A stretch of 64,000 bases of DNA from Candidatus Moraniibacteriota bacterium (lineage in GTDB: Bacteria > Patescibacteriota > Minisyncoccia > Moranbacterales > UBA1568), in assembly GCA_016699425.1 (NCBI GenBank), contig CP064975.1, positions 66,979 to 130,978 on the forward strand, in the 5' to 3' direction. Positions within the stretch are counted from its first letter, which is position 1; each line of letters begins with the position of its first letter. Under the pieces are notes generated by a model. It worked only from the letters and a program-made list of their open reading frames with translations, was not told the DNA's origin and searched no databases. Shown in pieces: positions 21,456-23,507 of this stretch. A program made the position numbers and the translations under genes.

Positions 21456-22349
21456 ATGCCATCCGGGAAAGACATTCGCCGACGTATCAAGGGCGTAAAG
21501 AGTACAGGAAAGATCACTCGAGCGATGGAGATGATTTCGGCTGTCAAAATGCGCCGGGCGGTCGAACGGGCACTGGCGATGCGGCCCTATGCGCAGGCAG
21601 TACTCTCCGTCCTCCATCGGGTGACGGTCGCCGTGAAACACGAACGGCATCCGCTCCTCCTCGAACGGCCGGTCAAGCGGGAGCTGTATGTGGTCATCAC
21701 GTCCAATCGTGGGCTGTGTGGTTCTTTCAATACCCAAGTCTTGAGAAAACTGCGTGAAGCACGGGCCGAAGACAAGGATCGGACGGCGGCATTTATCACA
21801 CTCGGCAAGAAAGGTGAACAGGCGGTTCGTCGGATGCAAGGTGATATCATCGCATCCTTTCCAGAAGTTTTCGAGTATCCACGAGTGACCGATATGCAGC
21901 CTATCGTGCGCATCATCCTGGACGAATTCCTCGCGGGCCGGGTGGACCGGGTGGTCATGGTCTACACGGACTATGTCTCGGCCCTGGTCCAAAAGGTGAA
22001 GGTCCGGGCGCTTCTCCCGGCGACCGAAAAGGACGCCAAGAAAATGCTCGACGAAATCGGACTGGAAACCAACGGAGACATGGGTGGTGGTGACTTCCTC
22101 ATCGAGCCGTTTCCCGAGACGGTGCTCGAGACGATCATCCCGCGGCTCATCGAAGCCGAGCTGTATCATGCCGTGCTCGAGTCCAATGCTTCACAGGAAG
22201 CCGCGCGCATGGTCGCGATGCGCAGTGCCACCGATGCCGCCCAAGAGATGACCGCTGACCTCACTCTTGCCTACAATCAGCTCCGTCAAGGCAAGATCAC
22301 TCAGGAGATCGCCGAGCTCAGTGCGGGCATGGCCGCGGTGCAGGGGTAG
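21456..22349 (+). CDS. atpG: F0F1 ATP synthase subunit gamma
   Basis: Conserved N-terminus IKGVKSTGKITRAMEMISAVKMRRA and C-terminal helix ITQEIAELSAG. Confidence 0.9.
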   Translation: MPSGKDIRRRIKGVKSTGKITRAMEMISAVKMRRAVERALAMRPYAQAVLSVLHRVTVAVKHERHPLLLERPVKRELYVVITSNRGLCGSFNTQVLRKLREARAEDKDRTAAFITLGKKGEQAVRRMQGDIIASFPEVFEYPRVTDMQPIVRIILDEFLAGRVDRVVMVYTDYVSALVQKVKVRALLPATEKDAKKMLDEIGLETNGDMGGGDFLIEPFPETVLETIIPRLIEAELYHAVLESNASQEAARMVAMRSATDAAQEMTADLTLAYNQLRQGKITQEIAELSAGMAAVQG

Positions 22350-22360
22350 GGACTGGGATG
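22345..22360 (+). repeat. 16-bp direct repeat copy 1 (GGTAGGGACTGGGATG), contains atpG stop codon
   Basis: Identical to 22958..22973. Confidence 0.8.
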
Positions 22361-22377
22361 CATGATGTACGAGTACT

Positions 22378-22962
22378 ATGAAGAAGACGATGAAAAACCT
22401 GGTAGCGGTTCCGAGCGAACATATCATCAAGCAGATTTTCTGGCTGCGTGGTGAGAAAGTGATGCTGGACTCCGATCTAGCAGAAATGTATGCTGTTGAA
22501 GTTAAGGTTCTGAATCAGGCGATCAAGCGAAATATCGAGCGCTTTCCGAAGGACTTTATGTTTCAGCTGACGTTCGAAGAGGCGAATCTGATGCTTGGTT
22601 CAAGGTCACAGTCTGTGACCTTGAACGAGGAAGGAGATAGCCGGATGCAGCCACAAACTGTGACTCCAAAGAGAGGTAAGAACATCAAATATGCCCCCTA
22701 TGCTTTCACCGAACAGGGAGTGGCGATGCTGTCGAGTGTGCTCAAGAGCGAGCGAGCGGTCCAGGTGAATATCCAGATCATCCGGACCTTCGTCGAGCTA
22801 CGGAAGATGCTTGTCACGCACGAGGCGTTGCGGAAGAAGATCGAGGCGATGGAACGAAAATACGATAAGCGGTTCCGAGCGGTGTTTGATGTATTGCGGC
22901 AGCTTTTGAAGGAAGAGGCAGAGCCGAAAAAGAAAATCGGATTCGAGGAAAAGAAAAGGTAG
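22378..22962 (+). CDS. ORF6N-domain (KilA-N-like) DNA-binding protein
   Basis: FWLRGEKVMLDSDLAEMYAVEVKVLNQAIKRNIERFPKDFMFQL is the ORF6N signature; the gene interrupts the atp operon between atpG and atpD. Confidence 0.8.
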   Translation: MKKTMKNLVAVPSEHIIKQIFWLRGEKVMLDSDLAEMYAVEVKVLNQAIKRNIERFPKDFMFQLTFEEANLMLGSRSQSVTLNEEGDSRMQPQTVTPKRGKNIKYAPYAFTEQGVAMLSSVLKSERAVQVNIQIIRTFVELRKMLVTHEALRKKIEAMERKYDKRFRAVFDVLRQLLKEEAEPKKKIGFEEKKR

Positions 22963-22973
22963 GGACTGGGATG
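22958..22973 (+). repeat. 16-bp direct repeat copy 2 (GGTAGGGACTGGGATG), contains ORF6N stop codon
   Basis: Identical to 22345..22360; immediately followed by the TGGAATCTGGAATCTTGG mini-repeat. Confidence 0.8.
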
Positions 22974-23116
22974 TGGAATCTGGAATCTTGGGGTGAAGAC
23001 CAAAATTCTAGATTCTAAATTCGAGACTCGGGTTTAGACAGTTGTTTGGAAAAAAGAAAAAAGACATACTATTGCGGTATGTCAGCGCGTAGTGTTGCTG
23101 ATGTGGCAGCCTATCA

Positions 23117-23383
23117 TCACTTAGGAAGTGTGGTGGCCCAGGCTACCAGCTCTTGAGAACGACACCGTATGCGTTCTCGAGAACCTGGAAACATTACTTC
23201 ATGCGCCGCCATTCTTTCTTCTTCGCTCATGCCGGCAAAAAGCTCATCATACGCTTCAAGGTATGTCCTATCAAGCTCATGAATTGCTTCTTCGTTGAGA
23301 GCAGCCAGTCTTTTTTCAAGATCAGCCTGGTTTAACGAATCCAATGCTTCTTCCAGTGTATGATACTTGGGGATTGACCGCAT
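23117..23383 (-). CDS. hypothetical small protein (88 aa), antisense to atp operon orientation
   Basis: A strong AGGAGG RBS lies 8 nt upstream of ATG (MRSIPKYHTLEEALDSL...), so the ORF-track GTG start was trimmed; no known domain. Confidence 0.55.
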   Translation of the reverse strand: MRSIPKYHTLEEALDSLNQADLEKRLAALNEEAIHELDRTYLEAYDELFAGMSEEERMAAHEVMFPGSRERIRCRSQELVAWATTLPK

Positions 23384-23444
23384 TTCCACTTCCTCCTATG
23401 TTGAAGTTCAAGGTAAAGGACTAGAAAAATAGTGTAGTATAAAA

Positions 23445-23476
23445 TTGAAAAAAAGTCAATCTCATTTACTATAACT
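23445..23476 (+). promoter_or_regulatory. candidate sigma70-like promoter for atpD (TTGAAA ... TATAAC) in AT-rich spacer
   Basis: Pattern match only in a 120-bp AT-rich gap; spacing is 16-19 nt depending on which -10 is chosen. Confidence 0.25.
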
Positions 23477-23507
23477 AATCAAGATTTCCCCCTAATCAAG
23501 CAAATAT

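Follow-up and report, generated by a model that had tools for sequence, protein, structure and literature searches.

An ORF6N gene in the ATP synthase operon of a Moranbacteria genome, its 16 bp boundary repeat and an adjoining variable antisense gene

Introduction

Free-standing homing endonuclease genes are known from T-even phages, for example mobE, which is located between nrdA and nrdB, and the seg genes, and homing to our knowledge produces no flanking duplication. Intercistronic mRNA stem-loops and repetitive extragenic palindromic (REP)-like elements stabilise upstream cistrons. In the case of integrative elements, i.e. prophages, integrative and conjugative elements (ICEs), cis-mobilizable elements (CIMEs) and helper-embedded satellites (PMC10111431), the att sites are such that the target gene regains an intact end. 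A RhuM-domain representative of PDC-S05, which PADLOC lists as a candidate single-gene phage defence and which also comprises stand-alone ORF6N/KilA-N-like genes, protected Escherichia coli from T7, T5 and T4 and reduced the plating of T7 and T5 about 1000-fold (bioRxiv 10.1101/2024.09.26.614923). Here, we describe an ORF6N-domain gene matched by PDC-S05 models that is located between atpG and atpD, within the F-type ATP synthase operon of a Candidatus Moraniibacteriota bacterium, and is bracketed by an exact 16 bp direct repeat. The entire 64 kb stretch of contig CP064975.1 that was analysed (positions 66,979 to 130,978) is referred to as the window.

The genomes of Patescibacteria are very small, and the ways in which accessory or defence genes are kept and exchanged in them are poorly understood; the present locus shows one route. 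It was singled out from the DNA sequence by an original prediction, which regarded the ORF6N gene as a mobile-type cassette, one of a class that inserts at gene boundaries, duplicates the boundary and carries its own terminator or promoter signals. The labels L001–L268 denote the contigs and loci of strains, relatives and metagenomic or viral homologs used for comparison.

Results

The ORF6N gene is bracketed by an exact repeat containing two stop codons

The F-type operon of the window is canonical except between atpG and atpD, where 1158 nt separate the atpG stop from the atpD start, and the designation of ORF6N as an accessory insert was borne out by L005, the nearest species representative, in which this gap measures only 25 nt. 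From atpG onwards, the spacer contains the 16-mer, ORF6N, the 16-mer again, a hairpin (hairpin H), a short hairpin with an A-run, a minus-strand terminator, a small minus-strand gene and an AT-rich divergent promoter-like stretch (Table 1). The elements placed here by the original prediction were all recovered, namely the ORF6N gene (Pfam E = 2.1e-30), the two exact 16-mers, each with the stop codon of the preceding gene, the TGGAATCTGGAATC mini-repeat, the small minus-strand gene with its strong ribosome-binding site and the AT-rich spacer. ORF6N starts 28 nt after atpG, and the GC content is 55–60% in the atp genes, 49–53% in ORF6N and 40–46% in the region 23050–23500.

When the window was searched for further copies, a search that had been proposed for the genome, the 16-mer GGTAGGGACTGGGATG was found at two sites only, even with three mismatches allowed. 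Both copies have the same register relative to a stop codon, the two stops being separated by 613 nt, and if both stops are taken as TAG, a 13-base match in exact register has a chance of about 4^-13 by our own calculation. Excluding the surface-protein genes (37–40 kb and 43.5–58.5 kb), three paralogous small genes (62.3–63.7 kb) and a tetratricopeptide repeat (TPR) gene repeat (60.4–61.2 kb), the only other short-range exact repeat of at least 15 nt in the 64 kb was a 36 nt pair at 7.65 kb. The 16-mer pair recurs in 12 contigs of the species, obtained from different samples, and is thus not an assembly artefact; copy 1 contains one single-nucleotide polymorphism (SNP; GGTAGtGAC...) in six of these contigs. 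Shuffled windows, again with three mismatches allowed, gave at least two matches in 13 of 100 trials, a count that is not conditioned on exactness and register and that would be the one point in favour of a chance origin. Together with the exactness of the match, its register with both stops and its recurrence in 12 independent contigs, the scarcity of comparable repeats effectively refutes the ideas that the repeat arose by chance or during assembly, or that it is a generic intergenic motif such as a ribosome-binding site or terminator. A common intergenic element was likewise rejected for the window, as the 16-mer has no third site there and the related GGAAT motif is not common between its genes. 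No inverted repeats were found at the ends of the ORF6N insert. Within ORF6N, a 14 nt sequence recurs exactly at 22404 and 22868 in two different reading frames, which is of borderline significance (P of roughly 0.04 over the scanned region).

The repeat coincides with the base of a hairpin that follows atpG in ORF6N-free genomes

Hairpin H folds with a minimum free energy of −33.7 kcal/mol (z = −4.7) on the plus strand and −18.9 on the minus strand, and TGGAATCTGGAATC at 22974–22987 forms part of its left arm. An alignment of six hairpins, comprising the post-ORF6N hairpins of the window, L004 and L173 and the post-atpG hairpins of L010, L006 and L168, revealed 26 conserved pairs, five of them with compensatory changes on both sides. 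Of 20 junctions folded, 18 were more stable as plus-strand RNA, and these comprise the six with aligned hairpins. In the ORF6N-free L006 and L010, the homologous heptamer hairpin is located directly after the atpG stop; in L010 it is followed by the GTTGTTTGGAAAAAA motif, a terminator, a minus-strand small gene and a promoter. As a homologous hairpin with compensatory pairs follows atpG in L006, L010 and L168, hairpin H represents the native 3′ element of atpG.

Because ORF6N-free relatives join the atpG stop directly to the hairpin, the 16-mer can be understood as a duplicated insertion junction, consisting of the stop and the hairpin base, with ORF6N located between the atpG stop and the hairpin. 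This supports the earlier proposal of a duplicated boundary, since in L006 and L010 the atpG stop runs straight into the hairpin that here follows ORF6N. Whereas copy 2 forms the 5′ side of the paired base of hairpin H, copy 1 finds no sequence to pair with here and looks like a junction that was truncated or duplicated. In L168 and L173, related heptamer-repeat hairpins are located after atpA (L168, 3824–3928) and after atpG as well, so that the element is a feature of intercistronic regions in the atp operon of this clade. An Rfam search of 22200–23600 yielded only sub-threshold microRNA and snoRNA noise and no family for hairpin H. A cassette-borne attC-like hairpin was considered and rejected, as the hairpin is present without the gene and ORF6N genes do not have more downstream structure than control genes.

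Distribution and turnover of the ORF6N gene

The closest homologs of the ORF6N protein (98, 78, 72, 72, 71, 73, 65 and 66% identity) are all encoded in the atpG–atpD spacer of Moranbacteria contigs, and every homolog of at least 62% identity (62–98%) occupies this spacer in one Moranbacteria clade. Eighty distant homologs (up to 58% identity) from JGI metagenomes, which served as a control set, included none near atp genes. Species-representative genomes were scanned with AtpG and the spacing to atpD was measured, a comparison already suggested by the original prediction: L005 (AtpG 84.5% identical) has the 25 nt spacer mentioned above, L006, L007 and L008 have 45–130 nt, and the spacer of L010 is 542 nt long but holds no ORF6N. 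Spacers of 230–2300 nt with other small genes, mostly on the minus strand and with strong ribosome-binding sites, were measured in many further Moranbacteria.

Trees of AtpA, AtpD and AtpG group the genomes with ORF6N in a single clade, among whose members L005, L006/L008/L010 and L007, all without the gene, are scattered; loss of ORF6N is the best explanation for the latter. The insert is present in all 12 contigs of the species. L012, which is outside the ORF6N-bearing clade and has no ORF6N open reading frame (ORF), contains in its spacer a 27 nt palindrome, CTTGAGGTCACAAATTGTGACCTCAAG, encoding LRSQIVTS; in 909 kb of atp loci this palindrome motif, described below, was otherwise found only inside ORF6N genes. 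The L012 spacer thus harbours a decayed ORF6N remnant, and as this remnant is located outside the clade, the presence of the ORF6N family in the spacer predates the radiation of the clade.

Between the window and L004, ORF6N showed 0.127 non-synonymous (dN) and 1.79 synonymous (dS) substitutions per site (dN/dS about 0.07), and the gene is under purifying selection. Pairwise ORF6N identities are star-like (67–81%), whatever the host distance. L168 and L173 are 97% identical in AtpD and 95% in AtpG but only 73% in ORF6N, with a dS of 1.86 in ORF6N vs 0.64 in the flanks, and this divergence far above that of the flanks indicates allele replacement of ORF6N. The order of the modules varies as well, being ORF6N, hairpin, small-gene module in the window, L001 and L004; hairpin, ORF6N, small-gene module in L168; small-gene module, ORF6N, hairpin in L085 and L173; and small-gene module, ORF6N, small-gene module in L002. 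In L086 and L087, fragments of the left hairpin arm (GAATCTGGAAT repeats) are located upstream of ORF6N.

The ORF6N genes of the window and strain L001 exhibit no synonymous and three non-synonymous differences. A recent, cassette-specific transfer of ORF6N between the two was considered and dropped, because the low-SNP tract begins 41 nt before the repeat and takes in non-cassette sequence. Over 18533–26503 of the window, differences from L001 are concentrated in dense clusters, between which as much as 1.8 kb may be free of SNPs, and such clustering indicates that homologous recombination is frequent in the population.

A variable small-gene module adjoins ORF6N

Between hairpin H and atpD lies a module with a small antisense gene, its own intrinsic terminator and a divergent promoter-like region. 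The motif at 23033–23062, conserved in L002, L004, L010, L085 and L173, includes the breakpoint relative to strain L001 (23054/23055), and in place of window positions 23055–23497, L001 has an unrelated sequence of 430 bp (4523–4952) with a different minus-strand gene. A third allele of this slot, whose gene is likewise unrelated to that of the window, was detected in L177–L180 (L177, ∼3677–4130), so that three alleles exist among strains that are ∼98.6% identical. The slot is bordered on the left by the conserved GTTGTTTGGAAAAA motif and on the right by the first few atpD codons. The promoter-like region is followed by a conserved leader, AATCAAG...AATCAAGC, before atpD, and the series GAAAAAGTCAAT ... 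TATAAC ... AATCAAG ... AATCAAGC precedes atpD in some genomes and ORF6N in others.

The small antisense protein had no homolog but itself (IPJ68_00450) in collections of 5.8e9 and 1.8e9 proteins and no Pfam, PHROG, PADLOC or NCBIfam family; none of the small neighbour genes of ORF6N had a PADLOC match. Its single-sequence structural model reached a predicted local distance difference test (pLDDT) score of 81.5 and had no fold match in PDB. The small-gene products of L001, L177 and L004 seem related to one another by eye, and several other spacer small genes encode proteins with two transmembrane (TM) segments.

This small-gene module, and not ORF6N, would be what splits the operon and gives atpDC its own promoter. 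Since the module exists without ORF6N in L010 and swaps between 98.6%-identical strains, its terminator and promoter are separate from the ORF6N cassette, and the claim that the cassette carries such signals itself had to be abandoned in favour of the adjacent module. The atpG–atpD spacer is a general hotspot in Moranbacteria.

In the spacers of Moranbacteria without ORF6N (L010, L011, L016, L018, L024, L026, L033 and L036), small minus-strand genes with strong Shine–Dalgarno sequences were observed, many of them encoding two-TM proteins. The spacers of L002, L009, L085, L087, L168 and L173 contain recurring GC-rich palindromes, GTCATTCCGAGCG...CGAGGAATC or GGGATCCCTCGACAGGCTCGGGATGAC, which look like a REP-like dispersed repeat.

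The ORF6N protein and a palindrome within its gene

The ORF6N protein matched Pfam ORF6N (PF10543) with 105.3 bits (cut-off 27.8), residues 19–121 covering model positions 2–86 of 86 with an insertion of ∼17 aa; beyond this domain, Pfam gave only a sub-threshold Rha match and no nuclease domain. The C-terminal half is predicted to be helical, and the public record of the protein starts at Met5 of the 194 aa ORF. PHROG searches returned anti-repressor families, PDB contained no sequence relative, and the PADLOC models of PDC-S05 were matched with E = 3.5e-54 (PDLC04856), 2.1e-53 (PDLC04869, residues 1–190) and 5.1e-36 (PDLC04849). The family is very widespread (>8000 hits in a protein search); literature mentioning ORF6N stated nothing on its function. 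A defence or regulatory role may be proposed.

No promoter-like or terminator-like signal proper to the ORF6N gene was detected, and given this and its distance of 28 nt from atpG, ORF6N would be expressed as the last cistron of an atpBEFHAG transcript, probably by the atp promoter. The seven-codon mini-ORF between the two genes (ATG CAT GAT GTA CGA GTA CTA TGA), which is not conserved in L004, may act as a translation relay from atpG to ORF6N.

The ORF6N coding sequence contains a perfect 25 nt palindrome, whose codons correspond to the conserved L[KR]SQ[IF]VT[SL] strand of ORF6N. Among 64 motif instances, a mean of 11.3 of the 12 mirrored positions were complementary, vs 4.7 after synonymous recoding. 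In 56 distinct sequences, 10 of 15 pairs were changed on both sides and 89.8% of the cells were paired, vs 26–44% with the partner slid, and the covariation was matched by none of 500 shuffles. As G–U cells are rare, the constraint may act at the DNA level or be strictly Watson–Crick. Amino acids co-vary with the symmetry (K/AAG with T/ACT, R/AGA with I/ATC, S/TCG with A/GCG), and in one subfamily of intact proteins the palindrome nucleotides are read in another frame (ELVTNCDQLP). Of 76 viral-contig homologs, 75 had at least nine of 12 positions complementary. In the loci surveyed (L088–L167 and L189–L268) the palindrome measures 25–31 nt. No further copy was found in the window outside ORF6N, the atp promoter region included. 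The palindrome could be the binding site of the ORF6N protein itself, a recombination site or something else. A full-text literature search with the palindrome core sequence turned up no description of the palindrome or of the flanking duplications in the material it returned, and the one match, judging by its title and abstract, was an unrelated taxonomic description.

Boundary-duplicating inserts at other loci

The 36 nt repeat at 7.65 kb is a duplication that covers codons 1–11 of an M16 peptidase gene (8160–9428), and it encloses an insert of 472 bp with a 94 aa two-TM ORF (7739–8023). Two Logan contigs matched this region, one of which enters the insert by 130 nt, while the other stops within the first repeat copy. 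In order to compare gene ends more widely, 170 nt windows at the two ends of the ORF6N gene were compared at 136 distinct loci from metagenomes and viral contigs, with same-length segments of the same loci as controls. Exact direct repeats of at least 15 nt flanked six of the 136 ORF6N loci but only three of 1617 controls (odds ratio 25, Fisher P = 1.4e-5), so that some ORF6N genes elsewhere are repeat-flanked, a point that the original prediction had proposed to check within the genome. In L191/L192, 20 exact nt (∼35 nearly exact) duplicate the start of an AAA ATPase gene on a viral contig. L103 has a 19 nt repeat; its ORF6N gene is part of an operon, with a dihydroorotate-dehydrogenase-family/ferredoxin gene on one side and an amidohydrolase gene on the other, and heptamer hairpins are found at both of its ends. 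In L102, a repeat of 28 exact nt (∼37 nearly exact) adjoins a second ORF6N copy in a tandem pair. The repeats measure 15, 16, 19, 20 (35), 28 (37) and 36 nt and differ in sequence by locus, and no common terminal motif was seen among the repeat-flanked inserts. The neighbours of distant ORF6N homologs comprise restriction–modification genes, integrases and second ORF6N copies. No integrase, transposase or other recombinase domain was found among the 20 large ORFs scanned in the 64 kb window.

Features of the window

Table 1. Coordinates of the atp genes, the elements of the atpG–atpD spacer and the insert at 7.65 kb.
Feature	Position in window	Strand	Description
Second boundary-duplicating insert	7650-8193	+	36 nt repeat (35/36 identical) at 7650-7685 and 8158-8193
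atpB	17787-18539		Part of the canonical F-type operon
atpE	18642-18869		
atpF	19038-19532		
atpH	19538-19936		
atpA	end at 21446		
atpG (ATP synthase gamma)	21456-22349	+	Pfam ATP-synt E = 1.6e-87; last housekeeping cistron upstream of the insert
Direct-repeat copy 1	22345-22360	+	Last two bases of the final atpG sense codon, TAG stop (22347-22349), 11 nt matching the 5′ base of hairpin H
Seven-codon mini-ORF	22358-22381	+	Stop overlaps the ORF6N start as ATGA; read from the sequence
ORF6N gene, 194 aa	22378-22962	+	Putative KilA-N-like DNA-binding domain (residues ∼19-121), then predicted helical coiled-coil-like C-terminal half
Perfect 25 nt palindrome TCAAGGTCACAG-T-CTGTGACCTTGA	22600-22624		Inside ORF6N, encodes SRSQSVTL; 12/12 mirrored positions complementary
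Degenerate second palindrome copy	22650-22664		Inside ORF6N
Direct-repeat copy 2	22958-22973	+	Last two bases of the final ORF6N sense codon, TAG stop (22960-22962), first 11 nt of hairpin H
Hairpin H	22962-23029	+	68 nt, sense-strand mRNA structure; arms are inverted heptamer arrays of (T)GGAATC type
Small hairpin with GTTGTTTGG tail and A-run	23033-23062	+	Conserved motif GTTGTTTGGAAAAAAGAA; left border of the variable slot, T-tract source for the minus-strand terminator
Intrinsic terminator (stem-loop and T-run) of the small antisense gene	23083-23063	-	
Small antisense gene, 88-90 aa	23117-23389	-	GGAGG 8 nt before ATG at 23383; acidic, predicted all-helical ORFan
Divergent promoter-like region	23431-23472		Minus: TTGACT-17-TACACT (23459 to 23431) for the small gene; plus: TTGAAA-16-TACTAT (23445-23472) for atpDC
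atpD (ATP synthase beta)	23508-24911	+	Pfam ATP-synt_ab E = 5.7e-72; first gene of the distal transcription unit atpDC
atpC	24914-25360		

Apart from the atp locus, a 771 aa gene with T4SS-pilin and fibronectin-III domains (26538–28853) was noted at window positions 26504–28994; it is absent from L001, which has ∼80 nt there. The leucyl-tRNA synthetase gene (29046–31910) encodes an inserted NUDIX domain at residues ∼387–510, as it does in L004. The region 44577–58461 contains two giant ORFs (2173 and 2185 aa) with ∼758 nt tandem repeats whose copies are 93–100% identical, and these probably encode repetitive surface proteins. In L168/L171, a reverse transcriptase gene (RVT_1) and a bAvd-like gene, together resembling a diversity-generating retroelement, are located ∼3–4 kb downstream of atpC.

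Discussion

The explanation that we favour, with moderate confidence, is that the atpG–atpD spacer contains two independent modules, one being an old, repeatedly lost and replaced ORF6N gene inserted between the atpG stop and the hairpin with duplication of the junction, and the other a separate small-gene module that splits the operon. An insertion event would have placed ORF6N, a PDC-S05-type accessory gene, in front of the native hairpin, and the same event would have duplicated 16 bp, i.e. GG, the TAG stop and the first 11 hairpin nucleotides. The ORF6N family would then have occupied the spacer since before the radiation of one Moranbacteria clade and would have been lost several times, either by clean deletions rejoining atpG to the hairpin or by decay as in L012, while its alleles were replaced by divergent ones, most plausibly via recombination in the conserved atp flanks. 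As the repeats vary in length (15–37 nt) and sequence and are accompanied by neither terminal inverted repeats nor a recombinase, the duplication is likely to be the footprint of a recombination-type insertion rather than of a transposase cut, and Campbell-type integration via short captured homology or a template switch could account for it. The small-gene module would consist of a hypervariable antisense gene with its own terminator and a divergent promoter that provides atpDC with a separate promoter.

Several observations weigh against parts of this explanation. No comparable flanking repeat was found at the other atp-embedded ORF6N genes, and the repeat could for this reason be a later local event in the species rather than the original insertion scar; the outcome that the original prediction had named as contradicting it, namely relatives that all carry ORF6N without repeats, is closely approached. 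The closest relative, L005, has neither hairpin nor ORF6N, and the pre-insertion state was reconstructed from more distant genomes. The heptamer arms of the hairpin are themselves repeats prone to slippage and gene conversion. Neither an empty site, whose junction after excision would read GTGCAGGGGTAGGGACTGGGATGTGGAATCTGG, nor a circular form, with the junction ...GAAAAGAAAAGGTAGGGACTGGGATGCATGATGTAC on a molecule without atpG, was seen among the 12 contigs of the species. A weak promoter-like site within the 3′ end of atpG speaks against co-transcription. With regard to defence, no defence island was seen, the flanks being atpG and atpD and the 20 large ORFs of the window encoding housekeeping or surface proteins, and the only PDC-S05 member for which a phenotype, in E. 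coli, is reported carries RhuM and not ORF6N (10.1101/2024.09.26.614923).

Alternatively, ORF6N could be a domesticated resident regulator of atpDC or of the small gene that entered once in the clade ancestor and was inherited vertically, the repeat having arisen by slippage or short-tract gene conversion between paralogous hairpins after atpG and after ORF6N, with subsequent loss of the greater part of the upstream hairpin. The clade-wide synteny, the strong purifying selection, the remnant in L012 and the constant proximity of ORF6N to the divergent promoter module are in agreement with such a history, and the hairpins on both sides of ORF6N in L168 and L103, the GAATCTGGAAT left-arm repeats of L086 and L087 and the drift of copy 1 in some strains are likewise in its favour. 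However, ORF6N divergence is decoupled from that of the host (73% vs 95–97% in L168/L173, with dS three times that of the flanks), at least three losses would be required, the position of ORF6N relative to the hairpin and the small-gene slot varies among genomes, the ORF6N palindrome is not present in the atp promoter region, and the family-wide excess of flanking repeats is unexpected under vertical inheritance. We therefore regard a resident regulator as possible but unlikely. A distinctly poorer candidate is an actively mobile, site-specific cassette comparable to those of integrons, to integrative mobile elements exploiting Xer (IMEX) or to CIMEs, for which a recombinase encoded elsewhere would act on the repeat (as an att core), the hairpin or the palindrome to excise a circle and re-insert it at operon junctions. 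Exact repeats do bracket a single promoterless ORF beside a hairpin, the clean atpG–hairpin junctions of ORF6N-free relatives resemble precise excisions, repeats are enriched around ORF6N genes including the tandem pair of L102, and the conserved, frame-independent palindrome could be a cis site. On the other hand, none of the 20 large ORFs scanned in the window encodes an integrase or transposase domain, and the repeats vary among loci in both sequence and length. The 16-mer lacks a GTTRRRY-type core and has no other site in the window, the hairpin exists without ORF6N as a homolog of the native 3′ element of atpG, downstream hairpins are not enriched at ORF6N genes in general, and all 12 species contigs are occupied. 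The original prediction of a mobile-type insertion thus did not hold in that the gene is neither recent nor demonstrably mobile, its homologs of at least 62% identity sharing the spacer throughout the clade and no recombinase having been found among the ORFs scanned, whereas its notion of a class of boundary-duplicating inserts was sustained by the repeat counts at ORF6N loci and by the 36 nt pair but not as regards mobility.

A more speculative idea, which we consider unlikely, concerns the whole family. ORF6N genes would then be minimal insertion cassettes of a kind not recognised before, consisting of a gene for a dimeric DNA-binding protein with an internal cis site, the palindrome TTGARGTCACAA-A-TTGTGACYTCAA (25–31 nt), that enter boundaries of operons and genes with target duplications of 15–37 nt, leave the flanking genes intact and persist, as selfish or anti-phage genes, on expression from essential operons such as atp. 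Regardless of this, the family bears two signatures, long target duplications of variable length and a Watson–Crick palindrome that survives changes of amino acid and frame, either of which could lead to the function and the mobility mechanism of this widespread family. The atpG–atpD spacer would be a landing site of long standing, used by a candidate defence gene as well as by a strain-variable small gene, both of them shielded from deletion by essential neighbours.

Comparison with known systems

The ORF6N gene resembles the stand-alone ORF6N/KilA-N-like genes of PDC-S05 in its Pfam score above the cut-off, its full-length match to three models, its nature as a single gene of ∼180–200 aa and its wide but patchy spread; it differs in being located within the essential ATP synthase operon of a 1.2 Mb Patescibacteria genome, from which it is probably expressed, and in having no defence island around it. 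As with the homing endonuclease genes of T-even phages, a small, selfish-looking gene is found between conserved essential genes, at the same locus and patchily in relatives, with a history decoupled from its flanks; in contrast to them, Pfam detected no nuclease domain (GIY-YIG, HNH or LAGLIDADG) in the ORF6N protein, and the insert is flanked by a duplication. Integron gene cassettes share the promoterless ORF of ∼0.6 kb, the short direct repeats, the imperfectly palindromic 3′ hairpin and the upstream promoter, but no Phage_integrase or IntI was found among the large ORFs scanned here, the repeat is at the 5′ base of the hairpin rather than at an R′ core with GTTRRRY and differs by locus, and the hairpin is the native 3′ element of atpG, present also without the gene.

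With att-type elements the inserts have in common repeats of 15–40 bp that include the end or start of a neighbouring gene (the atpG stop in the 16-mer, the M16 peptidase start in the 36-mer and the AAA ATPase start in the 20/35-mer of L191), whereas they are only 0.5–0.7 kb in size, with one small gene, no integrase or excisionase and nothing to suggest a decayed larger element. Insertion sequences, transposons and miniature inverted-repeat transposable elements are unlike them in that here terminal inverted repeats and a transposase domain are lacking and the flanking repeat is not of fixed length (15–36 nt exact). Like intercistronic stem-loops, hairpin H is located directly 3′ of a stop, is stabler on the sense strand, shows compensatory changes and has relatives after atpA and atpG; it is distinguished by its inverted heptamer arrays and its restriction to the atp operon within the window, and its role is a putative one. 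The locus as a whole is a variant of accessory or defence gene islets and of junction-restoring insertions, notable for its site within an essential operon of a minimal genome and for the two signatures of the family, the flanking duplications and the internal palindrome.

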